Shown here piece by piece: positions 12,375 through 46,439 of a stretch of 64,000 nt of DNA (position 1 is its first letter; every line of letters starts with the position of its first letter). A program made the translations under genes and the position numbers. A model generated the notes under the pieces. The model was not told where the DNA came from. It searched no databases and saw only the letters and a program-made list of their open reading frames with translations. Source of the DNA: Amphiscolops sp. MND2022 (taxonomy: Eukaryota); the NCBI GenBank assembly GCA_964187785.1, contig OZ076409.1, positions 79,858,001-79,922,000 of the forward strand, given 5' to 3'.

Positions 12375-13118
12375 TGTAACGCCAAGCTCTGGTACAGCAA
12401 TATCCACGGATTTTGCAACTCGACATGTTCAGAAATTTTGCCAAAAATTCGTTCAAATCTGACGTGGCACTCAAACATGCTCAAGATGAAGTACCTGCCA
12501 GAAAAGCACCCCAGAAAATCAGAAATCGCCGCCCGCGAAGAGCGAACGCAAGAAACGACCAAAAAGACGTACTTTTCGTCTAAAAAACACGGTATTGTGC
12601 CCATCCCCAAGAGATCGACACTACTATAGTACCGGAAACCCGTGTTCCAGATGTTCGCTGAGTATCCCTGCAGTGTCCTGTGTGGTGACGAGCGCTAGCG
12701 CTGGGAGCCGAGGTCATTTTCTACCAAAATGACTCAAACTGTTAATTTTGTTGTATTTCTCTTTGCTGTAGATTGATATGCTCGAGAGCTGCCCTTGAAC
12801 ATCTATGTTTACATATTTGGATATGTCGATTTTATCAGATTCTCCAATACTATGGCTCAACCTCCTCTTGTTTTCAGCCCCCTTTTTGAAGGCTAGTTGA
12901 GCAGTGGTCTTGAGTTATGCAAGATGCCTGTTACTTTTAGCAGTTACAGACTGGGACCAGGCCAGAGAGTTTCTTACAAGACGGTTCCCCCACCTTGGGA
13001 CTGGCTCCTTCGGAGGGAAAATGAGCTAGGGCCGCGGAGATCTAAGTCCCAGATTATATTCGCTGTTCTAGTTCCTCCACTCTAAGTTACGGTTGAAGCG
13101 CCGGCGCTTATCGTTACA
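12375..13118 (+). repeat. Gypsy 5' LTR (744 bp)
   Basis: Starts tgtaacg, ends cgttaca; ~99% identical by eye to 38714-39271 plus 45806-45992. Confidence 0.93.
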
Positions 13119-13133
13119 TAGAACCTCATTTTT

Positions 13134-13151
13134 TGGCGACCACAGAGGGAT
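13134..13151 (+). promoter_or_regulatory. Gypsy primer-binding site, probably tRNA-Arg
   Basis: tggcgaccacagagggat resembles the complement of a tRNA-Arg 3' end; lies 15 nt after the LTR end. Confidence 0.6.
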
Positions 13152-15629
13152 CGTCTTGGGAAGCTTTCCCGAGCGGTTTTTAAAAGATCTGGCCCCTGGT
13201 GATCAGCGCCAAGCCCGTTTCGACTCTGGAAAAGGAGAGAGAAGTAGAGTTTTGCCCTTTTTTAGTCGTGTGACAATCTACTGGAACTGGGAGAAGCGTT
13301 GAACTAGAGAAAACCCGAAAAAATCACGTTTTCAGGTGTGAAAAAGGCATTTTTAGGTGTTTTAGAAGAAAATCGCTATTTTTGTGTGATGTGTTATGTA
13401 CCCATCAGCGGGCATCTTTTTGCAGGTACAGAAGACCGTAGCACGTGGCTGCGGGTGTTTAACAGGTTTTGCGAGCTATTTTCAGCCATTTTATGCCATG
13501 CAAGAAGGTAACTGGTGGATGATTGGCCATGAGCCAGCGAGGCGAGGGAAGAGTCGATTTGTGTGTTGTCTACTTTCTACTCCCATTTCTCGGGGAGACG
13601 TCTTAGAGGTATGGTTTTTGGTGGACAGCAAGTGCAACAGCAGACGGTGCTAATGCTCCAAACCGCGTGTCTCTGTCTGGTCTGGATGTGGAGAAAAAAC
13701 GTGGAGAAGATACACCCCCTGTGACCAGACAGATGGCTCATGGTAGGCAAAAATTTTGAAAATGCGCCTTTTTCGACGGGGAATTGTTGGTGCAGGTCAG
13801 TGACGTTTTATCGCAAATGTAACGACACCCTATGAAGTGCTTTTCTGCGAAAAAGATGGCACTCGAGCGAAAAAAACCTCGTTTTTGCGTTTTGTTTGGT
13901 GTTTTTCTTGGTTTTGAGCACTCGTGCTCAGTGGAACCAGGAAAACTTTGCGAAAAGTGTTGTAAAAAGCAACTACAAGGCTCGGGAAAGCTGGTACAAG
14001 GCACGAGAGGCAGTATTCTGACCTTTGGTTGTGATAAAAGTGCCGATTTAGTACCAGAAAATTGCAAAAAAGTGGAAATTTGGCCAAAAATGCACCTAAA
14101 AGCACAGGCGTACACTTGTGTAGAAGCATAGAAAAGCAGTGTACGGTGTTTTTCAAGCGTAACTAACCCACAGGACACTAACTGCAACTTTTGTAGCGGA
14201 TTCAGGCAGCCCGGGGCTGACACGGTGTAAAAAACCTGTGATTTAAGGCGTTTTCAGGCATAGAAAGTGCATTGTCTGAAAGTCTTGGGAGCAAAGTCTA
14301 ATTGAACAGAGCGGCTCCGAACACTCTTTTTTTGTTTTTGTGATAAAAATAACGCGTGGTGGTGAAAACCGCGTGTAAAAATTCTCGTTCAGTGCTGAGA
14401 AAAGTGGAAAAACGCACTGGATTTGGTCAATTTTCCACTAAACCAGACTGTCTCCAGAATAGGGTCGGGTCACTCAATTCCGAACCCTAGCCAAAAAGTG
14501 GTTGCATTTTTGTAATCACCACAAAAATTAACGTCAGTGCCGAAAATTTGGTGAGTGTATCGGTCACCAAAGTCGAGAAAAGCTCTCTGACGTTTCGACT
14601 TCAGAGAAGCATAAAAAGACCGAAAAAATCCAAAACTGCAGGACTGTCAGTGCCTTATACCTAACGGGCACAACCAATTGAAGGTTTATCCCAGTTCTAC
14701 GGATAGTGGGGCAACACGTTGGTCCCATTTTGCCCGCCGTATCACTTCCTGAGGTGATCCTCTTGGTCAATTTGTGAAAAAAGTGGTCAAAAACAGTGTT
14801 TTTTCGTGTACAACGTACATAGTGGGTCGAAACCTCAAATAAGCGCTCGCGCTTCAATTCGACCATTTTAGTGGCATTGTAGGTGCCCACTGGCATAGAC
14901 TACCAAGTTTGGTGCCAATCTGTGTGATACTTGTTGAGAAAATAGGAAAAACGTGGCACCCAAAAAGGTGCGCAAAAAGGCAGTTTTTTCTTAGTTTTTC
15001 CAAGTAACCCGGGCACCTTAGCCGACGGGTGGGGCTATATTGCAGCCCACCATTGTAACTTGTGCTAGTTCCTACGTTGCTGCAGAGAATTTGAGCTTGC
15101 TAGCTCTTTCCAGTGGACCGCAATCTTGAAAAAGACGTGAAAAACAGTGCATCTCAGTACATAGTGGTACCGCACGTCTGTACCTAGGTGAAACTGTGTA
15201 GAAGGGGCGCAGCTCAAAACTGTGTTCATTTTCGTAAACCTACGTGTACCTAAGATCTGCTGGTGAATTTTGGGGCTTGATACAGCGTTTCCAGCGCACA
15301 CACGAGCCTCTTGAGTCTTGTTGTGCGATTTTTGGAAAATCCAAAAATTCCTTGAAATTCTTCCTGTGAGTGACCGGAGACCTTCTGCCCTAAACCAGGT
15401 TGATTTTCTGGCCCAGTGTGCTTGTGAGGAAGCGCTGTGCGAATTTGAGCAGCCTACGACCCCTAGAACGCATTTCGGAAAATTGAGGACATAGCCAACC
15501 ACAATTTTCTTAAGTCCTCACCGAAACGAATAGAGAGCTGATAGTGACTGAGCGGCCCCCGTACTCTCTGAAATCCAACCAGGGGCGGCGTCTGAGTTAC
15601 TAGTGCTCGTTTGGCCACTGATATAGTGC

Positions 15630-17960
15630 ATGATAGCCATGCGAGGTCCAGCGAAGTCCGACCTGAGCTCGCAGTCTTGGGCAACACATGAATCCTCGAT
15701 GGACGGTTCGCATTTTCCAGACGAAATGTCTGACGAAGTTACTACAGAACAACAACGCAAGGAGGAATTGGCCGCCATGGCTCCCCCCTCCGACGGTTCA
15801 GTCACTTCTGGAAGCTCCCGCCGCACTGAGCAATGGGTCGACGAGACATGCCGCGAAAGAGCCAACGAGGCAGAAGAGGAGTGGCCCAACTCAAATGTAA
15901 CTAACGAGCCTGTAGCTGAGGAAGGGTGCTCTCGAGCACCCCTGAGCGAAGAAACGAATTTGCGCTTGCAAGTCGCTGTGGACCAAGACCTCACCTATGT
16001 GGAAAACGCGAATTATTCGAGACCACAAGGGTCAGGACTCGCTCGAGGGATCACTCGAGTTTGTGCCTACGGAAAGCACAAGAGGGTGCGACCGCCCATG
16101 ATGAACGCAGGGGAACGCTACCTCGATGCACCGCGTACGAGGAGCGCGGCTGGCTCAGTGGCATCGTCCCAGCGGTCCTCGGTGTATAAGGCAGCACTAT
16201 TGGATGCCCAAGCTGAGACCCAGCGTGCCTTAGCAGGATTAGCCAGCACTCGTGCTGAGTGCAATGAGCAGCATCATGCCATCGTCGAGAACATGAGAAC
16301 GATGCAAATGACGATGCGGGAAGGGCTACAAGTCAGTGACTAACTGCGTACTGCGCAGAATGTGCAGAGTGCCCGAGTAGACACACTAGGCCATCGAATG
16401 GGCGAAATGAATGACTTGCTAATGGCCCGTGAGCTGCGCGTATAGACCCAGATCAACGACTTGAGCAACCAAATGCATACTGTGCTCAACGCTATCAACA
16501 CCATGAGGCGTGAGAGGTCCCTCCCGCGACCACCTGGTGCAGGAGAGGGTATGCCAGCTGGGAGCTCCACCAAGGCTCCGGAACAACCACACCCAAGTCG
16601 AGCGATAAAGCCGGAGTTAACCAGCGCGCTGAAACCTAGTGCCTCCAAACCAACAGTGCCTGAAACTCGGGTCAAGGATCCAGTGCTCATCATGTCTGAC
16701 ACGGATCGCAAGCCTGCACGAGTGCAGATGAGAGGGCCCCATGACTCCTACTCTACGAGTCTGTTGACCCCATCTGCAGCCAAAAGCGCCACCCGAGACC
16801 AAGGTGTGGACCCAATGTCAACTATCTATCTAGATTCCTCTACCGAAATTGATTTAGCCAGCACCAAAGTCACACTGGGATCCCAAACCGAAGGAGCCGC
16901 GTACGTGACGGCCCCTACCACGATGTCCGGACCAAATTCCCTGTACCTGACAGCCGACCTAACAGCCTATGACGGAATGCCCTCGGGCACTCCCTGTGCG
17001 AGCAGCACTCGAAAAAAGGAAGAGACGATGGATCTATCGGTGCAAGCCACGCACGGTAGTGACAATGGAACGGACGAGGTGGAACCGAAGGAAGGAGAGG
17101 CTGCAGTCATCTCCCCGAGCAGCTAAGGTTCACCGCCGCCATATCCAAAGCTATGTCTAAGGAGCTGGCGCCTTTGCTCGCAGGGCGGGATCTGGCCCAA
17201 ACCAGACCCAACGTGTATCGTGGTTCCAAGGATGGGTCTATCGATGGATGGATCCTCGTCATGCAGAGATACCTGAAACGAATCCAGACCAAGGTCTCGG
17301 CTGAAGACCGGGCCTGGAGCATCATCAGTCACCTCGAAGGTGAAGCTCGCAACTACATCATCAACAAAGCCGAGTCTGAACGTGACACTCCCGAAAAGGT
17401 ATTCGAGCTTTTATCCAATCGCATGCAGGTACGGCAAACTTTCCAAAGTCGTGTCCAACAAGAGAAGGAGGACTGGATGCAGTACCTGGACGCTCTAGAG
17501 GGTCTCAGAAGTCAGGGCGTCCCGCAGGAGAGTATCACTACCAAACGCTATGAGATCCTGCAACGCTTTATGGAAGGTGTGCGAGATCCAGTGTTGCGAC
17601 GAGAGCTCGCCATAGTGTACGCCTCAGAAACCTTCCTCACGGACCCCCTATGGTGGAGTCTTTGCGCTTCACCACTCGCCAATTACAGCGTAACCGCCCC
17701 AAACCAACACAACCCCAACAACCTTTTGATCCCCGATTAGCCATGAGGTCTCGAACTCATCCTTTTGTACCGTTGCCGCCGAACAAAACGGCAATGCCAC
17801 AAGGCGTATTGCCACCCCCGGCGCCTCCCTCAAAAGCCCCAGCAGCTCCCGCTGTTATGGTTCCCGCCCGAGTACCGGCAGGTGCTTGCTTCCACTGCGG
17901 GCAAAACGGACATTTCGCTCGCGAGTGTCCTAATCGCGAGCCAGCCCGCAAACCCCTGGC
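15630..17960 (+). pseudogene. Gypsy gag (long disordered/coiled-coil N-terminus, capsid, CCHC knuckle), disrupted
   Basis: ORFs 15630-16343 and 16461-17126 are in one frame with stops; capsid-like PNVYRGSKDGSIDGWILVMQRYL..SHLEGEARNY..RFMEGVRDP; zinc knuckle CFHCGQNGHFAREC. Confidence 0.8.
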
Positions 17961-20900
17961 CGCCTCCGAACCTGAAGGCGTGAAAGTCACTGCCGAAGAC
18001 ACAACCGATGGGATTCTCGAAGGTTATCGCGGAATCTACCAATGCACCAACTGTGGAGTCTTTGACCATGCCGGAGTGCAATGTGGCGAGCACTCCCAAA
18101 CCCAGAAGCCCAACGATGAATTTGCCTACAACCGATGGGCTGAAGTTGAATCCGCTGGCGTCGCCGCGCATACAGTGCCTTTAGAAGATGATCGCGTATT
18201 GATGCTACACCCGGCGCAGCCACCTGCATTCCACACTCCGTTGACGTTCACCTGCGGTGCTAAGCAAGTCCAAACCTGCTTGGAGCCTACAACATTCGAT
18301 CCGCAGGGACAAACGCTAATATCTATCCACTTGCTGTTAGCTGCCGAACAAGTCCGCAGACCAACATTGACCCTCGCGAAACTTTGGGTCGAAATGTCCA
18401 TCCTCTACACACGAGTCGAATTGCCCCGTCCAAAGGAGTGGTACGCTCCGGGAGAGTCCAAAACCCTGACGACGTACTCTCCAGTGCCCGTCTGCGCGAC
18501 GATCGATGGCGTAGATGTGAAGTTCGAAGCTTGCGTGGTGGTTGATGTATTCCCAACTGGCCTATGCCTGGGCCCTCAAGAACTGAAGTGCTACAACATA
18601 AATCACCAAGAACCAACTGGTGAAGCACGTATAGATGAGCGTGCGTCGCTCGTTGTCTCTTTCGTCGTGCCCCACGCGGCACCTATCCCATTGCGAGGAC
18701 TGGTGGACACTGGTTCTGGCGTGTCCATATTGACATTCTCTGCTTTCAAAAGAGTGGCAGCGCAGACCGGTACTGTCCTGAAACCATACCAGGTGGACTT
18801 GTATGCCGCCAATGGAAAGACGATAAAGACCTACGGCCTGGCAGAACGTATCCACTTCCAATTGGGAGGATACGAACTTGAAACGAACTTTGTCGTGGTG
18901 GATGACGCTATGGGTGTGGAAGACTTCCTTATAGGGCGGAATTTCCTCCGCTCCTACCAGGTCTTAGTGGACCTTACATCCATGAAAATCGTGGTGCGAG
19001 CACCAGTGAAACATGTCTGGCATCATGCACATGCACAGGTAGGTGACGCTTCAATAACTACCCCGGTTGTTCTGGACTGTGACGTAGTCCTGCAGCCTTT
19101 CGAACGTGCGGTGGCTAGAGCTAAGCTCGTCACCGATGCGCTGGAGCCAATGATCTTCCAAAGCGTAGCGCTCAACGCCTCTTTGTCTGACACTTCATTG
19201 CATAATGTCGTCTTTTTAGAGGACAAAGTGGCCACTGTCAGTGAGACAGGCACGTTGTACGTGAGTCTGATAAACCTCACCAGTAACCAACAACGCGTGC
19301 GGTGTGGTGTTCAACTGGGCACCGTAGTACCCGTGTCATTAGTGTACCAGGCAGTGCCTCAGAATCTGGTCTCTTCTACAACAACCAGTAAAGAAACTAA
19401 CGCCGACAACGGTCGAGCAATTTTTGTTTGTAAATACAGTGAAATGAATCTATCCACTGCTTCTGAGTTGACTTCTTCTTCAGAATTTGAGTTTTTATCC
19501 TCAACTGATCCTAGTGAGTCAGGACTTTCGGAGCGTGAAATTCGCAAACGTACCGATCCAGAGCTAATGGCTCTGATTCCCGGACCAGACTCTCAGCTGC
19601 AAGAAGTTAAGGATTTATGGGGCGCTAGCGCCTGCGAGTCCCTCGATAGGATCCCTAATGAGTTCGATGATTTGTTCATGAAACACAAAGCTGACATCGG
19701 CCGCTGTACTATCGCTAAACACACCGTAGAGGTGGAGCCAGGGGCTGTGCCGCATCGCCAAGGTGCTCGTAGGATGTCCCCTGAAAAAGCTGAGCGTGCC
19801 AACCAAGAGTTGCGGAACCTCTTGGCTTTGGGAATGATACGACCCTCGCTGTCCGCTAGGGCGAGTGGCATTGTGATGGTAAAAAAGAAAAACGGGGAGT
19901 TACGCTTCTGCTGCGACTTCCGCCCGTTAAACGAGGTGACCACCAAAGATGCCTACCCTTTGCCTCGCATAGATGAAAGCCTGGCCCGGCTTGGTAAGGC
20001 CAAGATCTATACCAGCATAGACCTTGCCTGGGCATTTTGGCAAATTCCTGTGCGAAAGGCGGATCGTCACAAAACCGCTTTTGCTTGCGAATTAGGGTTT
20101 TTTGAGTGGCGGCGAATGCCATTCGGCATGTGTAACGCTTCAGCCACTTTCCAGCGAGCGATAGCGCGCGCTACGGAACATTGTCAACCGCGAAGGCAGC
20201 ATGGTGATGGCCTACATCGATGACATTGTGATTGCAACCGAGACTGTGGAAGACCACATGGCACGACTACGCGAAGTCTTTGAGTGCCTCCGTGAAGCTG
20301 GTTTCAAAATGCGCGTATCCAAGTGCGATTTCATGAAGTCGGAGATCAAATATTTGGGACGTGTCGTCTCCGCGGAAGGCGTGAAACCAGACCCGAAATC
20401 CGTTGTTAAATTGCGCGACTGGGAGATTCCCCGCAACAAAACAGAAATGCAGAGCTTCCTGGGGTTCGCCAACTACTATCGCGAATTTATTCCCTGGCAC
20501 GCCAATTTAGTCGCACCCCTACACACCGTTACCGGGCTCAACGTCACGTTCACTTGGGGTCCCGAACAGCAAAAAGCATTTAACGAAATCAAGAAAGCAC
20601 TGATCGAGGCGACTGCGCTTGCGCAGCCCGATTCCGAAGGAGAGTTCGTGCTGGACACTGACGCCAGCGCTGTTGCCATCTCTGGCATCCTCCACCAATG
20701 GCAAGGTCCTCCTGGCGAAAGGCGCCTGAAACCAATTGTGTATGGCAGCAAGAAACTCATGACCACACAAGCCAAGTATGGGGCTCCCAAATTGGAAATG
20801 TTTGCAGTCTACTACTTCATTGTGAAGTACCACAGTTATCTTTGTCCACGAAAGTTCACCCTGAAGGTGGACAACCAAGCCTTATCCTGGTTGAAGACAT

Positions 20901-23790
20901 ATTCCACGGATCAAGCACTGATTGGCCGATGGATCATGACCCTGGAGAAGTATCACTTTCGCGTGGAACACCGCCCACGAACTCAGCATCGCAACGCCGA
21001 CGGCTTGAGCAAGCGAACTAATGAATATCGATGCCGGGAGAAACAACTTGCGCAGCTGCCATCCGCGGGACAGCGTTGGAATTTCGTGTCAGCTGAGGAA
21101 TTCGACAAGCTCCCTGTTGTCCCCTGGTTCGACCTCCAAGGTCGGGTGATTCCGAATCATCCTGATCTCCCCGAGCATCTGCAGAACCTGGAGCCTAAGG
21201 CTCCCAGCCCAGTATTACGTGTGCTTCGCCGCACTCAACGGGCAACCCGGCAAGAGAAACAAGCAAAAACGCTGGCAGCGCCCCTGCCGCCACCACCCCC
21301 TCTCGCACTACAACCGAACGAAGAGTCCTACCCAGACTATCCGGAAGACTGGATCGATGTCACCGCCGAGGCTCGTGAAGAATATTTGTTGCCGACGCAT
21401 GCTGTCAACGTACCTTCGCGAACTGTCTACCCAGTTGCCGGAGCGAGTGCAGCCAGCCTGCAAGGTACTCCTTCGAGTGTGCGTGACTCCATCATGGCCC
21501 TCAAAGACATCGACACCGAACTTCACGAACATACTCACACTGTGCATGGAATCAAGGATTTGGTTTTAGCCCAAAACCGTGATATGCATGTACTGGCACT
21601 AAAAAACTGGTGCTGAGCGAGTCCATTGACCACGACATCTTTCCTGAGAACGTGCGTGAGTTCGCGCGTAACTACTACCGCCAGAAGAAAGATCTCTTGT
21701 TCATCAACAAAAATGATGTTCTCTGCGTACGGTATTCCCCCAACCAACGCCCCTTGCACGAACGTCCGTGCATGATCATCATGCCTCAACTATATCAACA
21801 CGAGATCTTGTTCCGTGCGCACGACGCCATGGGACACCAGGGCATCTCCAAAGTGGTAGCCCAAATCCAAGAACGCCACACATGGCCTGGCATTCGACGC
21901 ATCGTGGGTCGTTACGTTGGCCAATGTCTCACCTGCCAACAGGTACGTGATAAGCCTGGTGACGTCCGATTCCATCTGAAGAACATCCAGAGCGGATACT
22001 TCAATGAACTGGTCCAGTACGACCATCTGAAGATCTGCCCCTCAGACAACAACAACACTGGCATCTTGGTCATCATCGATCATTTCTCCAAGTTCGCAGA
22101 AGCAGTTCCTTGCAGTCATCACGACTATGACGCTGTAACTACCTCTCGGTTGTTGCTGCAGAAATGGTTTGCCCGTCATGGCACACCCACTCGAATGCAA
22201 TCAGACAATGCTCCGAACTTGACTGCCGAAGTATCCAATGAATTCCTGAAAGCAGCCCACGTCACGAAAGTGACTTCCACTGCAGGGCATCCCAGGACCC
22301 AAGGCTTGGTAGAACGCCAAAACCGAACACTGTTAACCCTACTGCGAGTCTTTTGCTCCCGCCGCATGCGCGACTGGGACCAATGTCTAGACGAAGTCAT
22401 GGGTGCCTATAATTCAACGAGGCACGCTACCACTGGCTTCTCACCCTACATGTTAACGCGGGGCATGGAGAAAGCCATTCTTCTCACGTTTCTGTACCCC
22501 GAATTTGCCGCCAAATCCTTCAAAACGCATGAAGCGTACGTCGATCACGTGTTGGCTCGCCAACAAGAGATTCATGACTTGGTGCGACATAACACACACC
22601 AAGCTCAACTACGTCAAAAACTAAAGTACGATCGTGCAATACAAGCGCGAGCCTACCAGCCGGGAGAGCTCGTCTGGATTTTTTGCCGTTACGTGCCGCA
22701 ACAAGGCTCCTCCAAGCTAATGCGCGCTTGGCGTGGCCCTCACAAAGTTGTGCAAGTCTTCCAGGACGGTCGTGTCTACGTGCTGGACACGGGCCAAAAG
22801 GTTCATTTCGAGCGCCTCAACCCACATCACAGTGGCCCTCTTGAACTCGCTGCTGCACCCGCGGACAGCGGCGAAGTAGTGGTACTTATCGACCCCGAGC
22901 CTGAACGCTCCGTTGACGTGGTTGAAGACGACAAATCGCTTCCCTCATATAAGTCCGAACAACTGCTTTCAGAAGCGTCCGATGCGTCCTTGCCCTCACG
23001 CAAACGTCACTGGATGGACACTCGATTACGTACAAAGCTACGCGCAGGAGGCTTGCGTATGCATTACCAGCAATTTGACTATTCCACGTCGGGTACTGAT
23101 GACGAATTATCTGATGTCATGTTGCCGGTACCTCCGGATCTATTTGATGCAGGTCAAGCGGAGCCCGAGGCTCCTCCGACTGCTTCAGATCAATCGATAT
23201 CACCCGCTCGTGTTCTACCTAAACTATTCTACGACCATGAGCGCGTGCGCTCACCGTCTCCACAAATCTTTTCCTCTGATAAGGACTCATTGCCGGGGAC
23301 ATCGGCATCCTTATTAACGAACCCCTCATTGACTAATTTCCTCAGCAACTATCACATCTGGCCGACCGCTCCCCCAATTCCTCTGAAATCTGCCAGCGAT
23401 GAGAGTGACGTTCAGCCCAAAGTGCCTGACATTCCCGCAGCGTCGCCCGGAGCGGGGACCGCTCCTTCTTTTAAAAGGGGGAGGGGGAGACCGCCCAAGG
23501 CGCAGAAGAAACGGCTAGTCCGAGCAAAGGCAAAAACGAGGGAGAAAGAATCAACCACGAACGTTGAAACCAAGGCCTCAGCCGAAACAGCAACCCAGGC
23601 CGAGACCGAAAACCCAAAATCCGCAGAAGCATCTGAAGCTCCAAGATATCAACTGAGGAGTAAGCGACAGCCGCGCTACAAATGCGGAACCTGCGGGCTG
23701 CGAGACTGTGTCTGCTTGTTAGCTGTGAAAGAGAACCGGAGGGTTCCCACTGGAGCCCGGGGAGTTCCTCCGGAAGAGGGAGAAAACTAG
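17961..23790 (+). pseudogene. Gypsy pol (protease, dUTPase-like spacer, RT, RNase H, integrase), frameshifts at ~20170-20200 and ~21600
   Basis: PR LVDTGSGVS..IGRNFL; RT LRFCCDFRPLN, MPFGMCNASATFQR, AYIDD; RH DTDAS..KLEMFAV..VDNQAL..NADGLS; IN AHDAMGHQG..CLTCQ, IDHFSKF, SDNAPN, GLVERQNRTL, GPH. Confidence 0.95.
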
Positions 23791-24298
23791 TGCACCGCCT
23801 CACAGTGCGGGCCGAGAAAACCTACTCCGCCGTGGAACGATCTGGAAATCACCCCGTGGACGCTATCCTTGAGAAGCTATCATTACCTGGAGTAGAGAAA
23901 GCTCCTTGCCCCCGGTTTAAGGAGTGGACTAGTGATGAGAAGGGCCTGGAGTTTACCTTGCGCACCGTGATGTCCCCCGTGCCCAACAACATTGCGTTTG
24001 GACCATTCAATTTTGAAAGGGAACCCGTGCAAATGGCCCGGTGCATCACTGCTGACCTGTTGTGTGACAAGTACGGAGTGCAAGTGGAACCGGGTGGAGT
24101 ATACAGTCCTGCTCCTCATTGGTGGTTGCTGGTTACTGCTCCATGGGTGGAGACAATCGTGGAACCGCTGCACCTGCTGTCCTGTTTAGAGAGTCTTAGG
24201 ACCCTGACCACTACGGACTTGATACTTTGCTTCCATATCATAGACTGGTATCGGGGCAAGGTGAAATTTGCATGGTGGTTGGAACTGATCATCACCTG

Positions 24299-25225
24299 TG
24301 TAACGGCTGCTTGCCCTTATCCTGCGCTGAGGCTTGACAAGCTTTACGCCGCCCTGATCCGTTGCTTAGTGCTGTGGACCGTCACTAAACAATTCCTGGT
24401 TTTCTTGTTTAAAGGACTGTATCTTTTGGCTGGTGGGTCCGATGTGACCCGTGGAATCTCCTGCGATTCCGCTTTGCACTGAATTGGATCCGATGTGATC
24501 CTGCACACACACACTTCCCTCACTGTATCTTCACGCGCTCCGGCTCTCCAACTATGAGAGTAGCTACTTAGTCGCTCTGACTCTAGCGAAAAGTTGTGAA
24601 GATTAAGAAGTTGATTAATTAGTCTCGCGGTCCTAAGACCCAACTTGACTATAGCTATACAGTGGAGAAAATCTCTATCTAATAATGGTATAAATGTGGT
24701 TTACAATTCTACAGTAAATATAGAACAAATATCAGTTGAAATATGTGGTATAAATAAAATGACATTTAAGTGAATTATTAAAGTTATTGGCTATGTAAAC
24801 AAAGCACATGGTGGTTTTGGCATGTTGACTAGGCGGGCTTTAAAGCATGTTTACACAATGTAAATATCATGAATTCCAACAGAGTTACATTCTAATGTGG
24901 GTCATATGGTTAAATAACAAAGTTTACATTTTTGGTTCAATGACCTTGAACACTACACATGTGAGGGGTAAAGGGGGTTATAATGGGTGGATAACCTTGA
25001 AACTTGGCCAGTGTGTTTGGGTTATGTACCTGCATGCGTGTGCCAAGTTTCGTGGCTCTAGGGTTAACAGTCTTGGAGAAAACCCATTTGGGGGGGGGGT
25101 TTAAAGAATTGTGATGATTGGATTTTCTTCAAATTTTCATCTAAGTTTTTAAGAGTTTAAGTCTTGTTTCTCAACCAGCATGTTCCAAATCGACTTTCTT
25201 TGCCTGCTGATGACTGGCGCCAACA
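24299..25225 (-). repeat. BEL1 3' LTR (927 bp)
   Basis: Direct repeat of 31915-32840 with about 5 differences seen; TG...CA ends. Confidence 0.95.
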
Positions 25226-31791: not shown

Positions 31792-31894
31792 GTCAGAGAC
31801 TCCAAGAATCAGACACTTGTTCTTTCTGGGCAATTTTCTCTGTTGTACACCAACGAGTCGTCTTCTTCTAGTCCGGGTCGTCCACCAACGAGTT

Positions 31895-31912
31895 GTCCGG
31901 GTCGGCGGACCA
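31895..31912 (-). promoter_or_regulatory. BEL1 primer-binding site (tRNA-Tyr-like)
   Basis: Minus strand tggtccgccgacccggac, 2 nt from the 5' LTR; identical to the BEL2 PBS. Confidence 0.75.
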
Positions 31913-31914
31913 AA

Positions 31915-32840: not shown

Positions 32841-33661
32841 ACCTGCTTCACCACCTATCCCAGAATTCGACTGCTAGATGAGTGGACTCACACATTCGAG
32901 GTCCTCTGTTCCCAAAAGCCGCCCTGGGAACTCTGAATACATGGGTCAAAGCCGGCAGTGACAATCGAGCGATGCCCCGCTCGGTATGGCAAGACCTGGC
33001 TGCGATTCAAGGACGCGCGCCTCGCGTGTGCCTCCCCTCCGACAATGGACCCGGACGAGAAATTGTTTACCCGGGAGCCCTATATCCAAATTCAGCCGAA
33101 CATGTCTCGTACGACGAAACTGACTTTTTGCAAGCAGAAGGCGATATCGTGTTAGCATGCCCCGCTGACCTGAAAACTAACTCCGCCGCCTTGCAATACG
33201 TGCTGCGAGAATGTGGCATAGAAAAAGTATTCTCCTTACGGCCTAAGGTGGGCGAGATGCTCACCATCCCCCCTGATGTTAATCCAAACCCCAACCAAAG
33301 TGTTCACCTGCTGATAGTACGAGCAAACCAGCGTGCGCCGCTGCTGACCGATGACTATTTGCACTGCATGACGCACCTAGTACAGCGCTTAATGGACAAG
33401 AGATCCGCACGGGTCCATTTGCCCATTCTGGACCACGAGAGACCTACCTTCTCGTTGGTCAATCTGTACCATGCCCTAGCGAACATGTTCGAGGGTACTG
33501 GTATTCATGTGGTTTTACACAGCCGCGTGTATGTGTCAATATTGAGTATAGGGCTGGAATAGCCTTGTCACTTAAATCCAACCCCTTTCCCCCGTTACCA
33601 TTGCCTGATTGTAATTGCCTGAGTACCCACCAACAGTCATCCTTTTTAGACCTATGAATTA

Positions 33662-36600: not shown

Positions 36601-37218
36601 CAGTCGCAACCTCTACATAATGCGGAGCGCCAGATATCCTGGGAGTTGGCCGGATTTCCCATGCCACAGCAACTCGCTGAACTGACGTTAGCCGAAGTAG
36701 AGGTCTTTGTGGCCTCCATGGCTCCGGTTTTGGCCCGAATTTTCGGCGCAATTGGTGTCTGCAGGTACCCAACTAAGCCCCTCGCGAGAGCAGTGCAGGT
36801 GCATATGGTATCCTTCTGCACCTATCTTCAAGGACGCCCCTCGCTGACTTACCCACGCGTTGTACAGGCCGTACTGAGTGGAGAAATGCCGCATGGGTAC
36901 ACTACTCTGAAGTCTGAGAAACAGTTGGAGGAGAATTTGATGGGGCTACTGCGTGCTCGCACGCGAAAATTATGTCCTTTGCCGCGGGAGTACGGCCCAA
37001 TCAATTGGTACTCCGCCCCCCTCAGCCTGAATGGAGTCCCCTTCCGATTTCCATGGACCCAAGAGTTCATTCGTAAGGTGATCCGTGCCAGCACTAGTGC
37101 TGGTCCACCCATAGACCCCCTCTACAGTTTCCGGTGCATCACTTTCCCAAACCATTACTGGAAAGAACCACTGGGATGGCCCAGACCGAAGCACATTGGT
37201 CGCGCCCTGAGACCTTAA
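33662..37218 (+). pseudogene. Gypsy extra large ORF (~1180 aa reconstructed) with an SGNH-hydrolase-like core; frameshifts at ~35750 and ~35815
   Basis: ATG-started 737-aa and 469-aa frames bridged by part of ORF 35508-35879; motifs CVAVDS, LTMPLS, VIFANLLDH, ALFVSPP, GDLRPDALSY. Confidence 0.55.
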
Positions 37219-37940
37219 ACCGACAGATCCAACATATGGAACTGGCGCAAATCCCGGGTTGGATTGAAGAAGCCGCCCAAATTCGACAGCGAAATCTTCT
37301 GTGCCGCATTACTCCGTTTCCCCGAAGATCTATATGGAGGCCCCAGGGAAAGATGACGATGTCAGGAGATATGTCAATCGTGTTACACGATGAGATAAAT
37401 TCTGTCCTAGGTTCTGAAGCCCGTGCAGAATGGGAGGGACGTTGCTTGGAACTGGAGATTGCCAGCTTCCCGAAATGGAAGCGAGCTTGCGAGCTCTGGA
37501 ATCAACCTGGCTGGGTTTCCAAGCGAGTATCCTTGGCTGTGGAGAGTCGAGCCGAGACCGCCAGACAACAGGCGTTCGCGCCTACCATGCTCGCACCAAC
37601 AATGGCCATGTCGCGGAATCAACCCAGCGTACGACCCATAACCCTTGATCTACCCACTCATGTCTTGAACCCAGAGCCTATCAGTCCACCGTCGTCACAG
37701 GCCAGTCCTCAGTCATCGCAGCCCCAAACCGGAGAACACGCCGCTGAACTGACCCCCAACACTATCCTGGTGCAGCCGATCGCCGATTTAGCGCTCCCAG
37801 AAGACCTTTCAGACTCGGAAACAGTAGTTTCTGTAGTTCCTGCTCAACGTAGAGCGTCAGTCGCGTTGGAAGATGCTAGCAATCCAGGAACTTCCGATGA
37901 TGCCACCAAGAATCGAGCTCGACGCAGCTCAGCCCAATGA
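37134..37940 (+). CDS. Gypsy terminal extra ORF (268 aa) or frameshifted continuation of the large ORF; unknown function
   Basis: Open frame overlapping the end of 35809-37218; Trp-rich core and P/S-rich tail. Confidence 0.45.
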   Translation: MHHFPKPLLERTTGMAQTEAHWSRPETLNRQIQHMELAQIPGWIEEAAQIRQRNLLCRITPFPRRSIWRPQGKMTMSGDMSIVLHDEINSVLGSEARAEWEGRCLELEIASFPKWKRACELWNQPGWVSKRVSLAVESRAETARQQAFAPTMLAPTMAMSRNQPSVRPITLDLPTHVLNPEPISPPSSQASPQSSQPQTGEHAAELTPNTILVQPIADLALPEDLSDSETVVSVVPAQRRASVALEDASNPGTSDDATKNRARRSSAQ

Positions 37941-38696: not shown

Positions 38697-38713
38697 AGAA
38701 GCCCGGGGAGTGA
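38697..38713 (+). promoter_or_regulatory. Gypsy polypurine tract
   Basis: agaagcccggggagtga immediately before the 3' LTR tgtaac. Confidence 0.6.
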
Positions 38714-41057
38714 TGTAACGGCAAGCTCTGGTACAGCAATATCCACCGATTTTGCAACTCGACATGTTCAGATATTTTGCCAAAAATTCGTTCAAATCTG
38801 ACGTGGCACTCAAACATGCTCAAGATGAAGTACCTGCCAGAAAAGCACCCCAGAAAATCAGAAATCGCCGCCCGCGAAGAGCGAACGCAAGAAACGACCA
38901 AAAAGACGTACTTTTCGTCTAAAAAACACGGTATTGTGCCCATCCCCAAGAGATCGACACTACTATAGTACCGGAAACCCGTGTTCCAGATGTTCGCCTG
39001 AGTATCCCTGCAGTGTCCTGTGTGGTGACGAGCGCTAGCGCTGGGAGCCGAAGTCATTTTCTACCAAAATGACTCAAACTGTTAATTTTGTTGTATTTCT
39101 CTTTGCTGTAGATTGATATGCTCGAGAGCTGCTCTTGAACATCTATGTTTACATATTTGGATATGTCGATTTTATCAGATTCTCCAATACTATGGCTCAA
39201 CCTCCTCTTGTTTTCAGCCCCCTTTTTAAAGGCTAGTTGAGCAGTGGTCTTGAGTTATGCAAGATGCCTGTTGTTGGCGCAAGTCAATTGCGAGATCAGA
39301 ATCTCAAATTTGAACGTGACTGATGAAACTTACAACTCAAAAGACTTAGAAAATTTATCATGATTTTAGTTGGAAAATTTACAAGTTTCAGCAGAAAATT
39401 GCCTGAGGGAAAAAACACCACCCCCCCCCCCCCGTCCCGACGAACCGCTCGTTCAACAACCTCGAAACTTGGCACATATATAGTGGTGGTGCTTTCCTAA
39501 CTTTTCACTCTTAACAAGCTACCCCGTATCTCCCCTGGGTTCAGAGCAATTAACACCCAAAGTGACCTAGGTCGTACCCCATGAATTACCCAATTTTGAT
39601 GTATTAATATTTATGTGATTTTCTCATTTGACCTTGAAGGAAATGTAACTCTGTTGAAATTTATGATATTTACATTGTGTAAACATACTTTCTAACCCAC
39701 CTAACCACCATGCCAAAACCACCACATTCTTTGTTTACATAGCCAATAACTTTAATAATTCACTTGAATGTCATTTAATTATACAACATATTTCAACTGA
39801 TATTTGCTTATATTTACTGTAGAATTGTAAACCACATGTGTACCATTATTAGAGAGAGATTTTAACGACTGAATAGCTGTATTCAAGTTGGGTCTTAGGA
39901 CCATTTCAATTCTCAGTTCATTTCTTCACCTCTTTTCGACTTTTCGCCAAAGACTTAGGGCGACTAAGTTAGTTACTCTCATCTTGTGGAGAGTTGGACG
40001 TGTTAAGAGACAAGGAAGAAGTGCAATTCGGGATCATTGGATCCTACTAAGTCAAGATACAGTCCTTTTAATCTAAGAAGCAAGCAGTGTTCGGTAACGA
40101 TCCGCAGTGCCGAGCACCGAATTCAGGGCGGCGTAAAGTTTGGTCAATTGAAGGGATCAAGCAGCCGTTACATTTGGTCCGCCGACCCGGACATCATCTT
40201 TTGGGCGGACATCATCACATTGGGCGGACATCAAAAGTTGGAGTGGACATCAATCAGGGTGGACACTACAAGAGGAACGTCGTCTTCATCGTGGGTGAAT
40301 TGCATTCGTGGTGGAAGACACGTGAGCAGTTAGAGTCATCAAACGGGTGACACAACATCTCTCTGTTCAAGTTACACGAAGTTTGAAAGAGCTTCCGTGC
40401 TGGTTTCTGTGGCAAACCAGAGAGCTGGGAGGACAAGCCTAATTGTAGGGACCTTCCAAAACTAGAAGTTGCAACAGGTGATCCTGTTCGCACAGCAATC
40501 GAAAAGTATTGCAAGAGTCGTTGCATTCGAACGGAATCGCGACAAGTAGCTGAGACAACTATTCACGACGAATGAGAACTGTGGACACTGGGTCTAGAGT
40601 TGGTGATTGGAACTCTGGGAAAGTGTACACTGGGGCTTCGGTATTGGACTATTGGGCGATTTGGAACTTGATTGGTTGTGTACTCTGGGAGTTGGGCTTT
40701 AGCAGGAGACAATTGTGCTTCAATTCCAGTTTGGGACGATTGGTATCCTTGGGAAACGTATTCCTAATTGAAAGCAAAGGTTTTAACTAAGACGTCGCTG
40801 CAAGCATATCCACCAAGTAAAGCAAAAGGATCGAGTCATTGGGCGAGGTCCACCGAATCAATCAAATTCGTCAACGAAGGCAAGCATAATCGACATTTTG
40901 GGTTGATTCTTCAAGAATTGGCGATTGATTACTGCGTTGAGCAGTTGAGATTTCAGATCTTACAAATTGCTGAGTTTGGGAAAAGTGACAAAGTCGACAA
41001 GAAACTATTGTGTAGTCAGAAAGTCCTCGGTTAAACAATAAACTGCAATCTGAACAA

Positions 41058-42719
41058 ATGAACGCCAGAAAGAAAGAAATGCTCGAGGTGCAACATCCTC
41101 GAATGACAAATGTATTTGATCAAAGAAACACAAATCAGAGCCAAGAACTGATGGACCTCAGATCAAGAGATTTGGAAAATGATTCCGACTGGTACGTGTG
41201 GCGCTTTTATGTGGACACTGTGGCCACCCAAGTCGGAAGACTACGGACTCTGATTAAAGACTTGGATGACAAGCTTGACGAGCAGGGCGCTAGTCTTTGC
41301 AAAGGAAAATTGAAAGATTGGGTATTCGAATATCGCGAGAATAAACAAGCATTGTTGCATAACGTAGATCTCATGTTGGACCTCACGAACGAAGCAACGC
41401 AAAGACAGCTCAATCGAAGTGTGACTGAATGGGAAGAAATCTTTGTAAAATTAGAAGACAGCTGGGGATATTGGTTCCCTGATGTAAAGACAATGTTGAA
41501 AAATCCAAAAAATAAAACAGACAAAACGAAACTTCGCCAAGTGGCAAGTGGAACCTGCACAGATGCGACTATGAGATGCACTTACACAAGGAAGCTCAAG
41601 CAAATTAGTTTCAATCCAACAAAACGCAATTGCTCAGTGGAAGTAACTAGTGAAAATAAATCACTGGCACAGTCAAACAGGGTAACGGATGAAGAACGAC
41701 GGGTTGTTGGAGCAGCCAACCCCTGTGATGTGATTAAATCAATCAGTGATGTGAAAGTGTTAATCGAACAAAGCAACAACGAGTCAGTCAAAGCAACCTC
41801 AAAGAGCAACAGAACAACAGCTAGTTCTAAGTCATTTAATGCAAAACGAATACTTCTTCTAGAATTGGAAGCAATGAAGAAACGAGATGAAATTGATGAG
41901 CAGCTAGCTGCAGCAAGACGCAAAGCCGAGATCCGAAAGAAACAATGGGAGATGGACATGAGGATACTCGCAGAAAAACTCGAAATTGCTAGGCTCGAAG
42001 AAGAAAGCGCGAGGACTAAACAAGTTGCCAACCAAGAAATTGAGTTAGCGCGAAATGAAATGCAGCTAAAACTGACACAATCACAGAAAGTGACAAAGCA
42101 GTTGCAACCATGCAAAGTTCCGCAGGAATGTTATCGGACTTTCAAGGCAATCTCGAACTCAACAAAGCCTCTTACAGGAGCGGAACTGCGTGAGCAAAGC
42201 GCTCACTCTCGGAACAACATGAATGAAGTGACGAACAAACGGTCACACCAGAGAAGCAACAAGGAACCCTGTTTTGGGCGAACTGATGCAAAGAGTATTG
42301 TTGGATCACTTTGGCGCTCGAACCATAAAAGCGTTGAAAGTAGTTCAATGATGAGAACTGTGAAGCAAACTCAACCAAGGCAAACTTCGAGCAAAGAAAG
42401 TTCAAGTGGTCGTAATGAATCGCTGAAAAGAAAAGACGACGTTTTGGGCAAGCAAGAAGAAATGGTTTTGCTCAAAACTCTTAACTGGACAACAAAAGGA
42501 AAGTGTACAGTGAAAAAATGGAAACCTGAGCAGATGAAGTGTTCAGACAAGTGTCCAAACCATGGAAAGTTGCAAGACAAAACTACCAAACGTGAAGCAC
42601 ATGAAGACTCAAATATGAGAAATGTTGAAAGCGATGCAAACAAAGGAACCTCGAAAAATCTAATCGCAGAATGGATGTGGAACTGGCCAGAAACGTTCGT
42701 TGTAGACATTGGCTGGTAA
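41058..42719 (+). CDS. Gag-like coiled-coil protein of BEL2 (553 aa)
   Basis: SKSNRTTASSKSFNAKRILLLELEAMKKRDE resembles BEL1 gag TKSNKTSVISKTSSARRVLDLEIKALKEQEE. Confidence 0.55.
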   Translation: MNARKKEMLEVQHPRMTNVFDQRNTNQSQELMDLRSRDLENDSDWYVWRFYVDTVATQVGRLRTLIKDLDDKLDEQGASLCKGKLKDWVFEYRENKQALLHNVDLMLDLTNEATQRQLNRSVTEWEEIFVKLEDSWGYWFPDVKTMLKNPKNKTDKTKLRQVASGTCTDATMRCTYTRKLKQISFNPTKRNCSVEVTSENKSLAQSNRVTDEERRVVGAANPCDVIKSISDVKVLIEQSNNESVKATSKSNRTTASSKSFNAKRILLLELEAMKKRDEIDEQLAAARRKAEIRKKQWEMDMRILAEKLEIARLEEESARTKQVANQEIELARNEMQLKLTQSQKVTKQLQPCKVPQECYRTFKAISNSTKPLTGAELREQSAHSRNNMNEVTNKRSHQRSNKEPCFGRTDAKSIVGSLWRSNHKSVESSSMMRTVKQTQPRQTSSKESSSGRNESLKRKDDVLGKQEEMVLLKTLNWTTKGKCTVKKWKPEQMKCSDKCPNHGKLQDKTTKREAHEDSNMRNVESDANKGTSKNLIAEWMWNWPETFVVDIGW

Positions 42720-45062
42720 GACTTCCGATCAGAAACCCTCCTCGTGGATACAGAGCAAATTTTGGAAGAAGAGATTCACTTGGTCATGAGTGAGCACTTG
42801 GTAGTGCAAACAGAGGAGACTTTGGATTACAGAATGACTGAAACAAGGAAAGAGCATCGAAGCTCAGCCTTCGCATCGAACAATGAAACTTCGGAAGAAA
42901 TGAGTGTGCAATTGGAACTGCTGCAAGAGATGGCAGAATTTTCCACCGTACTGCAGGACGTGCGACAGGGGAAACTATTCCAAGTGACAGTGTTTTATGA
43001 CATTACTCTACTTCTTGAAGAAAAAAAACAAATGTTATGAATTTGTCAAAAGTTATGACTTTGTGAATGAACAACGTTATACACTGCCAGGAGACTTGAA
43101 TGAAATAGTCATGTATCAAAAGCTATGCCACGTTGCATTGAAACATGATAAACCCGCGAAAGGCAATGCTAAAGTTGAAACACAAATCGTGAATGCAACC
43201 TTTGGAAAGAAGACGGATTTCGACTTCAATGAATGTCTTTTAGAAGAAACTATCCCGAGTCATAGTAATATATGGAACCCTTGGACTGGTAATGGAAACT
43301 CTGGAATGGACGCAGTGTCACAGGCTAATGGCATTAATAAAACTCAATTGAGCAAAGGCCACCGCAAGCGACCGAAGAAAAGATCTTGGAAGATTGAACA
43401 TAACTGGAACCTGATTCATGGAATGGAGGAAGGCGCTCAGTTGAAAGTGAATGGAACACCACAAGATGACACACTTTGGCTACGTGAGTTCAGAGATAAC
43501 TCATCAGTGACAAGAATAGAAATGTGTTCTTTGAAAGTACCAGCAACAAGTTGGAGCAACGGGTCTTGCAATGGGCCGGCTGCACTTTTCAAGACATTGT
43601 GGACTTGGCATGGGTCTTTTGGCAAATTGGAAGTTTCTGATGATCTATCGCAGCCGGATAGAAACCTAGATGAAAAGAAAGTAGAATTTTGTGGTGAAAG
43701 AAGCTCGGTGACGCTCTAGGAACAGAAGCGAAAGCGAAACTCCACAGCATTGCAGTTACTGGGAGAAAACTCGGATGTAGCTACGGAAAACGATGTGTCA
43801 GAAAGCAGAGTGCTAAATGTAGTGCAGCGACTGAGCTTAAAACACAACTCCCCCCCCTATTGGATGCAAAGAGAACATTGAACACGAAGGAAAAAACTGC
43901 AGTCGCAGTAATGTTGGAAATTTTCTTCATCTATTGGTGATGATGATGGATGATTCAATAATCTCTCACGAACGCCAAATTGATTGCTTGAATATGAAAC
44001 GATTAGAGAACCAATTCTGTTTGATATACGTCCCCCGCAGTTATTCAACTTTGATGAGGAAATATGCAGCAGAGCAAATCTTGGCAAACTGGCTGAAGAC
44101 ATTTTTGACCTACCTGGAAATCTACTCTTTGGATGTTGAAGTAATTATGGAAGTCGAGCTAAATGAGCTGAAGCATTTTGGCAGTGTACTTTTCGAGGGC
44201 TCACAAGAAAAGCAATTGATTGAACTCAGTGAATGTCGGACGTTGGTGATGAAGTTTGCGATAATTGGGAAAATTGAGACTTCAAATGAGAAAATAGTTT
44301 TATGGAAATATTTTGTTGTGTTTTTTGAACGTGTGGAAAACAACCTTACGGTCGGCGAAGTGGGTTATGGGCTAAAAAAACATTGCAGCAGAGAGAGAAC
44401 ACATCAAGCAACTGACAAAGATGACTATGAATCTGGAGATCTCAGAAAGACAACGACAATTGATGACGAACTGAAACGACCAGTAGTGAGACTGGCACCC
44501 CTGTTCTATGAAAGTGTTTTTCGGGAGAAAAACAGGGCCGGCAATGTTGGCGCCAGTCAATTGCGAGATCAGAATCTCAAATTTGAACGTGACTGATGAA
44601 ACTTACAACTCAAAAGACTTAGAAAATTTATCATGATTTTAGTTGGAAAATTTACAAGTTTCAGCAGAAATATGCCTGAGGGAAAAAACACCACCCCCCA
44701 CTGTCCCGACGAACCGCTCGTTCAACAACCTCGAAACTTGGCACATATATAGTGGTGGTGCTTTCCTAACTTTTCACTCCTAACAAGCTACCCCGTATCT
44801 CCCCTGGGTTCAGAGCATTTACCACCCAAAGTGACCTAGGTCGTACCCCATGAATTACCCAATTTTGATGTATTAATAATTATGTGATTTTCTCATTTGA
44901 CCTTGAAGGAAATGTAACTCTGTTGAAATTTATGATATTTACATTGTGTAAACATACTTTCTAACCCACCTAACCACCATGCCAAAACCACCACATTCTT
45001 TGTTTACATAGCCAATAACTTTAATAATTCACTTAAATGTCATTTAATTATACAACATATTT

Positions 45063-45412
45063 GGGTGGCTGTAAATAGGTCGAATTTTTCTGGTCGAAAG
45101 GACTGAGGTCGAACCTTTTGATCGAATTACAGGGATCGAATGGAATGCGGTCGAATTTTATCGTATTTGTTGTATGGCTCGGTCGCTTCGCTCCCTTCGC
45201 CAAGTAGCAACATTGAGGCATGGCCATATGGCACGTCGCTCCGCTTCGCTTCGCTCCTGCATTCAGGGCACTAGGGGTATGTGAACATATCTGACTACGT
45301 TATAAAAATTTCGATCCGAGTTGTTTCGATCCCATTCAAAAATTTGGTATTGTCGACCTGAGGACTAACTCTGATTTTCGATCCCGTTCCTTCGACCTAT
45401 TTCCGCCCACCC
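45063..45412. mobile_element. Mutator-like MITE (family D) in the BEL2 3' LTR
   Basis: Perfect 9-bp TSD aacatattt (45054-45062, 45413-45421); empty site in the 5' LTR at ~39785. Confidence 0.93.
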
Positions 45413-46439
45413 AACATATTTCAACTGATATTTGCTTATATTTACTGTAGAATTGTAAACCACATGTGTACCATTATTAGAGAGAGATTTTAACGACTGA
45501 ATAGCTGTATTCAAGTTGGGTCTTAGGACCATTTCAATTCTCAGTTCATTTCTTCACCTCTTTTCGACTTTTCGCCAAAGACTTAGGGCGACTAAGTTGG
45601 TTACTCTCATCTTGTGGAGAGTTGGACGTGTTAAGAGACAAGGAAGAAGTGCAATTCGGGATCATTGGATCCTACTAAGTCAAGATACAGTCCTTTTAAT
45701 CTAAGAAGCAAGCAGTGTTCGGTAACGATCCGCAGTGCCGAGCACCGAATTCAGGGCGGCGTAAAGTTTGGTCAATTGAAGGGATCAAGCAGCCGTTACA
45801 CCTGTTACTTTTAGCAGTTACAGACTGGGACCAGGCCAGAGAGTTTCTTACAAGACGGTTCCCCCACCTTGGGACTGGCTCCTTCGGAGGGAAAATGAGC
45901 TAGGGCCGCGGAGATCTAAGTCCCAGATTATATTCGCTGTTCTAGTTCCTCCACTCTAAGTTACGGTTCAAGCGCCGGCGCTTATCGTTACAGATCGTAG
46001 TGGGAGCTGGTCTTTGCTACGGTGAGGGCGAGCGTGCATACACCGCATATGCCCCACATTATGATATTTCCGGGAGTTGACATTTTTATTCCTTGAATTG
46101 GAATGGAGTTGGCTTAATTTTGTGGTCACTTGGCTTGAAATTTTTAAGCCAAATGACTCTACGAAAAAATTAAGCCAAATGGTATTAAGCCAAGTGACTG
46201 GTAACCCTATATTTTATTTAAACTGACTGCATTGTACTTAACTTCTGTACTGGTACTATTGTTCAATTTTTTAAACATAGCATTAGAGAAAATTTAATTC
46301 TTTCTTTCTTCTTAAGTTTAATTTTTTGAGCACATTTGATCCTCAAGTTGATCCCCCATCGAAACCTTTTCAAGCTGAAATTGTCTCATTACCGGTTTAT
46401 GTTTTTAATGTTCTAAGCTCTGCTCAATTCCAGGTGATA

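Follow-up and report, generated by a model that had tools for sequence, protein, structure and literature searches.

A giant Ty3/Gypsy element of Amphiscolops sp. with 3-bp target-site duplications and a predicted double macrodomain tail

A 64,000-nt stretch of the Amphiscolops sp. MND2022 genome (contig OZ076409.1, positions 79,858,001 to 79,922,000; hereafter the window) carries a giant retrotransposon, element A, flanked by a target-site duplication (TSD) of exactly 3 bp. Element A is a decayed Ty3/Gypsy copy interrupted by two nested Bel/Pao elements. It is probable, in our judgment, that the 3-bp TSD reflects most likely a 3-base stagger of the integrase, and that the two macrodomains predicted at the end of gag-pol likely bind rather than cut. 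Within this genome the lineage is marked by the 3-bp TSD, by a long spacer from the long terminal repeat (LTR) to the primer-binding site (PBS), as well as by a double macrodomain tail.

The triplet GAT flanks element A on both sides (12372..12374 and 45993..45995). The insertion lies in a repeat unit that is also present in the window four times in empty form, each with a single GAT, which confirms the duplication. Family A, to which element A belongs, has a TSD of exactly 3 bp in 15/16 insertions, sister family C in 11/11 and the other families in 6/7. The lineage thus shows a 3-bp TSD in 32 of 34 scorable insertions, and one of 4 bp or longer in none; L021/L022, L027/L028, L043/L045, L058/L060, L061/L062 and unpaired single LTR loci are left out of this count. 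As a control for chance, mismatched flank pairs agree over 3 bp in 8/240. In two Gypsy families of this genome that are unrelated to the lineage, 6/6 insertions have 5-bp TSDs (one being a run of T), and both Bel/Pao elements in the window, elements B and C, likewise have TSDs of 5 bp. The LTR termini are TG...CA at 30/30 family-A loci and at 29/30 loci of sister family C, where one begins with GG.

The gap between LTR and PBS is 15–17 nt across the lineage; in the control Gypsy family with a visible PBS it is 1 nt in 4/4. The PBS matches 18 nt of the host tRNA-Arg(TCG), which, judging from this match, is likely the primer of the element. The PBS of one sister family is different and starts with TGGCGCCC. 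A genome-wide search for the tRNA-Arg(TCG) pattern gave 254 matches. Of the first 100 listed, 99 fall in locus L124 (G000:C9, from about 57.54 Mb), where tRNA-Arg(TCG) genes form a tandem array with a spacing of ~173 bp.

The genome searched comprises 1.07 Gb. An LTR search gave 2,804 first-look candidates, 40 of which were scored, and a 19-mer at the start of the second open reading frame (ORF2) has 62 exact copies; both figures are raw candidates or lower bounds and not copy numbers. Ten further copies of family A were fetched. All are colinear and free of elements B and C, and the eight with both ends in the fetched DNA measure 17.2–19.0 kb. The window copy carries 10 reading-frame breaks, each of which is open in 7–9 of the 9–11 copies that cover it. 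The gag-pol frame is open across the insertion point of element B in 7/10 copies, and the two breaks in ORF2 are open in 8/11 and 7/11. The junction between ORF1 and ORF2 is open in 0/11. Since the breaks are open in most copies and the junction in none, the architecture of the family is two ORFs, a gag-pol of ~3,200 amino acids (aa) and an ORF2 of ~1,430–1,530 aa. One subfamily copy has gag-pol as a single frame of 2,978 aa, which the next stretch prolongs by 203 aa; its ORF2 has 1,427 aa. A first-pass annotation of the window had placed ~5.5 kb of several extra sense ORFs behind pol. The macrodomain pair among them proved to be the in-frame C-terminus of gag-pol, following the integrase, and 33650–37940 is one ORF in other copies. 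Nor is this cargo an unrelated nested insertion with its own TSD.

Sister families in the same genome share ~82, 52 and 41% identity in ORF2 and are 19–20 kb long. The LTR pairs of one are identical or near-identical, which indicates that it moved recently. Four 14.8-kb elements of the same reverse transcriptase (RT) clade have the macrodomain pair and no ORF2. Such ORF2-less families include ones with an open gag-pol, and 3 of the 4 elements show a clear 3-bp TSD. In the RT tree some of them lie outside the ORF2-bearing families and some among these, which means that ORF2 was lost repeatedly or was passed from one family to another. ORF2 is under selection but dispensable in cis, as families without it also spread. 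An apparent fusion of ORF1 and ORF2 in L222/L225 was rejected, as tblastn found no ORF2 there.

The core of element A is that of an ordinary Metaviridae (Ty3/Gypsy) element by the tests run. Pfam matches to zf-CCHC, protease (PR), RT, RNase H (RH) and integrase (IN) occur in Gypsy order, PR-RT-RH-IN after gag. The best match in a sequence search of PDB is Ty3 Gag-Pol (E 1.6e-101), followed by caulimoviral (5e-46) and retroviral (2e-34) proteins. RH follows RT directly with no tether domain, and the integrase keeps its catalytic triad as D-D35-E. The hallmarks of Metaviridae are present: two LTRs, and an internal region with an 18-nt tRNA PBS and a short polypurine tract (PPT). The capsid region has only a weak PNMA match (E 0.005). 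Gag has an N-terminal extension of ~500 aa, and in pol a spacer separates PR from RT and another RH from IN. By eye the PR-RT spacer resembles a dUTPase; this identity was dropped because it gained no search support, including among the best 60 of 246 rows.

Selection was gauged by the ratio of nonsynonymous to synonymous substitution rates (dN/dS) in one pairwise comparison with a subfamily of ~80% identity, at dS 0.4–1.8, so that the values are rough. The PR-RT spacer has the highest value of the regions compared (0.26). The ratio is 0.03 for RT, 0.044 for macrodomain 1, 0.077 for macrodomain 2 and 0.04–0.20 for parts of ORF2; by this sequence comparison every cargo region is under purifying selection, and the cargo is conserved at 0.04–0.20 throughout.

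Between the integrase and the macrodomain region lies a linker that contains an AT-hook-like motif as well as a conserved Cys cluster. The macrodomain region has no match in Pfam, a PDB sequence search with a single macro piece gave no useful match, and a PDB profile search returned only TARG1/C6orf130, weakly (E about 0.9); the ESM Atlas gave a weak Macro lead (0.86). The predicted structure is more informative. The top Foldseek matches of the AlphaFold model are to TARG1 (E 9e-6), and in VIA-align both halves match TARG1, DarG or Poa1p, with Z 10.2 and 8.9 for aa 30–140 and Z 9.4 for aa 216–356. Gag-pol is therefore predicted to end in two macrodomain folds of the TARG1/DarG class, a tandem that the first-pass annotation had proposed. 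TARG1 depends on a catalytic Lys and on Gly-rich ADP-ribose loops. The position aligned to that Lys is Arg in 61/63 rows, and the Gly-rich loops are not retained, the sequence being ILDPERP where TARG1 has IGCGLD. With the Lys replaced and the loops gone, the catalysis of the macrodomains is probably lost.

ORF2 has no Pfam match, a PDB search with its profile gave no useful match, and the ESM Atlas returned none for its SGNH-like part. Among 50 VIA rows for the structure model, most are SGNH/GDSL hydrolases aligned to aa ~157–325. The SGNH-like protein of the first-pass annotation corresponds to a middling fold match (Z about 7), although not to a separate ORF, since it forms part of ORF2. 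The Trp-rich ORF also listed there was not found: Trp makes up 1.4–1.5% of ORF2, and the frame at 37098 has 8 Trp in 280 aa. In the motifs of the SGNH fold, D-S is present in 25–26 of 27 rows and N-x-x-D is kept. Block II has no Gly, and block V reads D-L-R-P, the blocks being assigned by eye. Arg stands at the likely catalytic His position of block V in 39/40 rows, and the fold is likely inactive. A scan of three ORF2s for hydropathy and motifs found no R-x-K/R-R site, and no signal peptide or C-terminal anchor shared by the three, the fold model of this protein being poor. A branch-point/acceptor-like motif precedes ORF2 in several families, and ORF2 is probably expressed separately, from a spliced RNA.

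Relatives outside this genome were sought among the 150 best representatives retrieved. Trees were built by FastTree from the top 60–84 of the RT-RH sequences retrieved, with SH-like supports and midpoint rooting, and place the lineage among these relatives. Five representatives from other assemblies score far above the rest, at 43–52% identity. Together with metagenome locus L127 and the present lineage they form one clade on a long stem, with SH support of 1.0. The C-terminal domain of one relative, P0252, matches Pfam Macro and human TARG1 (E 9e-21), and that of P0395 and P0397 shows weak similarity (pairwise E 0.0045, probability 7.7%). L127 (3045–20299 of a metagenome contig) is an element of >20 kb with three open ORFs, a gag of 1,667 aa, a pol of 2,197 aa and a third ORF of 1,808 aa, and gave no significant match to the macro profile. 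Its third ORF has complete-looking SGNH motifs by eye, and a piece of it gave no useful match in a PDB search. Homology between this ORF and ORF2 is not shown: one 24-column motif aligns at E 0.028, the profile scores do not exceed those of 200 shuffles, and only order and spacing agree (376 vs 386 aa). A third ORF behind pol, of ~750 aa, is also present in L207–L210 (7320–9578), a control Gypsy family whose LTRs are ~2 kb long.

The following course is proposed for the element. The genomic RNA would be translated into one gag-pol of ~3,200 aa, as the family suggests, which would assemble into particles. The tRNA-Arg(TCG) would prime reverse transcription at the 18-nt PBS, 15 nt in from the end of the LTR; the match is observed and the priming is expected from it. 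The resulting cDNA would carry an overhang of 15–17 nt at the U5 end, which the integrase or another nuclease would have to trim to CA. The insertions observed have TG...CA ends and 3-bp duplications. The tail of the integrase, with its AT-hook-like motif, Cys cluster and macrodomain pair, would occupy the place of the chromodomain in chromoviruses. Its probable role is to anchor integration at ADP-ribosylated or nucleic-acid marks, or else to shield the element from ADP-ribose signalling. ORF2 would be an accessory protein with a likely inactive SGNH fold, probably made from spliced RNA. A bolder proposal is that the lineage represents an unnamed deep clade of Gypsy, in which 3-bp integration arose independently of Troyka elements with TG...CA ends kept, the intasome trims the 15–17-nt overhang and is steered by a tandem of pseudo-macrodomains reading ADP-ribose or nucleic acid, as the macrodomain equivalent of chromoviruses, and a giant pseudo-esterase gene is exchangeable. 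We hold this tentatively, at a little short of even confidence.

Several observations weigh against parts of this account. Two of the 34 insertions have mismatched flanks, and the TSD counts cover the families of this genome. The model of the macrodomain region has a mean predicted local distance difference test (pLDDT) of 61, which is moderate, and that of ORF2 is poor overall, at 48. The best Z of the SGNH match, 7.5, is within the range that the tool calls common, and Foldseek against PDB and BFVD found no match of ORF2 at E<=0.001. The loss of both catalytic sites is read from alignments to TARG1 and SGNH motifs. A candidate splice donor is present in only 3/6 leaders, and integrated copies of a spliced junction have 0 genomic matches vs 62 for the unspliced form. 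Macrodomains are also found in the pol of unrelated Gypsy elements, namely P0327 and L211/L213. As the last two have a macrodomain yet a 5-bp TSD, the macrodomain alone cannot explain the 3-bp stagger. L211 and L213 (each 4113–8942) are members of a Gypsy family that is unrelated to the lineage, with LTRs of ~3.1 kb and TSDs of 5 bp. Its TARG1-like macrodomain lies inside pol at aa 832–955, after RT-RH, and is a separate capture.

Other explanations need to be considered. Troyka elements have 3-bp TSDs, and in the available parts of the sources they are described with CG...CG termini, a CX2CX8-10HX4C knuckle, I/V/LADD in RT, no GPY/F and LTRs of 100–400 bp (PMC12440569, a 2025 study built on Repbase entries; PMC11673190). 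The lineage could be a Troyka/Kuafuortervirus element that gained size and cargo, in agreement with its 3-bp TSD, its single gag-pol ORF and its Gypsy domain order. However, element A has TG...CA ends, a CX2CX4HX4C knuckle, YIDD, the GPY/F-like WRGPH and a 744-bp LTR, and its top PDB match is Ty3, which makes a Troyka origin highly improbable. Because the element differs from Troyka in termini, knuckle, RT motif and GPY/F, the 3-bp trait of this lineage looks independent of Troyka. Another possibility is that Repbase or GyDB already contains this family, cargo and TSD included, and that its annotation here is the sole novelty. We consider it unlikely, though less so than the other alternatives. 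In its favour, relatives are present in several public assemblies. Against it, the accessible text of PMC12440569 gives TSDs of 4–6 bp for the other LTR retrotransposons, and our literature searches, judged from the search results alone, returned no report of a Gypsy element with 3-bp TSDs and none of one with a macrodomain tail.

ORF2 might instead be an env-like gene of an infectious element, its SGNH fold acting on membranes or glycans as viral esterases do. Its position is that of env, it has an acceptor-like site of its own, it is under purifying selection, and it is kept or lost among families as env is. The features of an envelope protein named above were nevertheless not seen in the three ORF2s scanned, and the Arg at the likely catalytic His position also argues against an esterase; we consider this reading improbable. 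A last alternative takes the cargo for nested junk or for host DNA free of selection, and ascribes the 3-bp duplication to chance or to the assembly. A copy broken in 10 places, and the ease with which three bases match at random, could suggest it. The dN/dS of the cargo far below 1 throughout, the 32/34 duplications vs 8/240 by chance and the empty sites in the window refute it, and it has the least probability of all. The preferred reading remains a Gypsy lineage with a probable 3-base integrase stagger and probably non-catalytic macrodomains.

Comparison of the window with itself resolves 12375–45992 into three nested LTR elements, A with B and C inside it. After removal of B, C and their 5-bp duplications, element A measures 18,537 bp, in line with the ~18.5 kb and 744-bp LTRs estimated at first pass; the ~2.5-kb leader, the extended gag and the extra modules in pol of that annotation were likewise recovered. 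Element A lies on the plus strand. Its 5′ LTR (12375..13118, 744 bp, TG...CA ends) is followed by the 15-nt spacer (13119..13133), the PBS (13134..13151), whose 18 nt are complementary to the 3′ end of the tRNA, and the non-coding leader (13152..15626). Within the leader, the block 14440–14780 is conserved among subfamilies, with 54% invariant columns, and is predicted to form a shared structure, with 6 compensatory pairs and z -7.3 against a crude shuffle of its columns; it is a candidate packaging or translation signal. The first part of ORF1 (15627..24298) has 7 breaks here and is a single gag-pol frame in other copies. It comprises the N-terminal extension, a capsid-like region, the knuckle (~17884–17934) and PR (~18690–18950), and then a spacer, RT with YIDD, RH, a second spacer and IN with D-D35-E and WRGPH. 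The linker follows, with the AT-hook-like GRGRP at ~23470 and the Cys cluster at ~23680, and macrodomain 1 starts from ~24000. The last part of ORF1 (32846..33562) holds the end of macrodomain 1 and macrodomain 2 (~33107–33530). An intergenic stretch (33563..33661), ~170 nt shorter than in other copies, ends in the branch-point/acceptor-like CCAAC...TTTTTAG. ORF2 (33650..37940) has its first in-frame ATG at 33662 and 2 breaks here, and is one ORF of ~1,430 aa elsewhere; the SGNH-like part (~35210–35830) precedes a helical domain. The PPT (38700..38713) has GGGGAG, followed by TGA. The 3′ LTR is split into 38714..39271 and the end of 45801..45992, a segment that begins with the duplicated target of element C. 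The LTR pair differs by 7 substitutions and 1 indel over 744 bp.

Element B (24299..32840, minus strand) is inserted in macrodomain 1 and is not cargo. It has 927-bp LTRs and the 5-bp TSD ACCTG, and is assigned to Bel/Pao by Pfam matches to Peptidase_A17, DUF1759 and DUF5641. Its leader contains a 24-bp tandem array of 9.3 copies (31399–31953 and 31569–31792). Element C (39272..45800, plus strand), a non-autonomous element of Bel/Pao type with the 5-bp TSD CCTGT, lies inside the 3′ LTR of element A. Its LTRs are related to those of element B and its pol is nearly gone, reduced to the last ~30 aa; 41016–44596 holds long ORF pieces, A-rich and coiled-coil-like, with no Pfam match. A 350-bp miniature inverted-repeat transposable element is present in two copies, at 11877–12226 and, inside element C, at 45063–45412, the latter with a 9-bp TSD as in Mutator-like elements. 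The remainder of the window includes a complex satellite (13–7430) of 38-bp units in higher-order repeats of ~1.8–2.1 kb, with an inversion near 6250–6530 and an empty form of the target site of element A; a decayed long interspersed nuclear element (8867–11524); host genes (46287–50711), namely a homologue of KRI1 and an intron-containing DEAD-box helicase; and a remnant of a CENP-B-type transposase (51192–52472).

TSD length serves as a classifying trait, with 3 bp so far regarded as diagnostic of Troyka. The presence of TSDs of this length in a Gypsy lineage with normal TG...CA ends would mean that the trait arose twice. The lineage and the Gypsy controls with 5-bp TSDs in one genome offer a natural comparison for the determinants of the integrase stagger. 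Annotation tools by their typical defaults require a TSD of 4–6 bp and a PBS next to the LTR, and would overlook a family whose candidate LTR sites in this genome number in the thousands. The series of macrodomain tails, from the TARG1-like form in the relative P0252 to the duplicated, degenerate pair here, makes it possible to test whether ADP-ribose signalling is linked to the targeting of retrotransposons or to counter-defence.

[quoted passage not shown] The element shares with them the LTRs, the 18-nt tRNA PBS, the PPT and the order capsid-nucleocapsid-PR-RT-RH-IN (PMC7879559). Unlike usual Metaviridae, it has a 15–17-nt LTR-PBS spacer, a double macrodomain tail and an ORF2 in which no env features were seen, and its lineage departs from the typical TSD of 4–6 bp, which is usual and stands outside the ICTV definition. 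The remaining comparisons follow the available portions of the sources. Ty3 has a 5-bp TSD (PMC8632968) where 3 bp are found here. Troyka/Kuafuorterviruses share the 3-bp TSD, the single gag-pol and the order PR-RT-RH-IN and differ in the motifs, ends and LTR length discussed above; the size of 15–20 kb in the element family, the macrodomain tail and ORF2 go beyond them. The bdelloid Vesta and Juno elements also have an extra 3′ GDSL/SGNH ORF gained or lost among families, and an insert between PR and RT, which is a dUTPase there (PMC5408684). Their SGNH residues are intact, whereas the ORF2 of ~1,430–1,530 aa has Arg at the His position, and no macrodomain is noted for them in that portion of the source.

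Burro, a giant planarian Gypsy element of >30 kb (PMC6431247), resembles the present family in size, multi-domain polyprotein and high copy number. Between gag and pol it carries BIR, BCL2, MATH, ankyrin and env as cargo, none of which was found here, and 'macro' occurs 0 times in the available text of the Burro paper. Fish epsilon-like endogenous retroviruses have macrodomain ORFs (PMC4977317, citing Basta 2009). There the macrodomain is an extra ORF in Retroviridae, whereas here two degenerate TARG1-class folds are fused to the integrase. Chromoviruses have a chromodomain reader at the C-terminus of pol (10.1101/2021.11.30.470311; PMC12440569), the place held here by the macrodomain pair. 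Giant size, extra SGNH ORFs and macrodomains in retroelements are all already in print (PMC7879559, PMC6431247, PMC5408684, PMC4977317). The lineage does look undescribed, as the first-pass annotation had suspected, in view of its many subfamilies, the purifying selection and its long-stemmed RT clade, in which relatives from elsewhere also bear a macrodomain tail; the suggested 'new retroelement system' is too strong, and the combination of cargo does not define the lineage, ORF2 being absent from the 14.8-kb families. What makes the lineage a new variant within Gypsy is chiefly its 3-bp TSD in combination with TG...CA ends, together with the long spacer before the PBS and the tail of tandem macrodomains.

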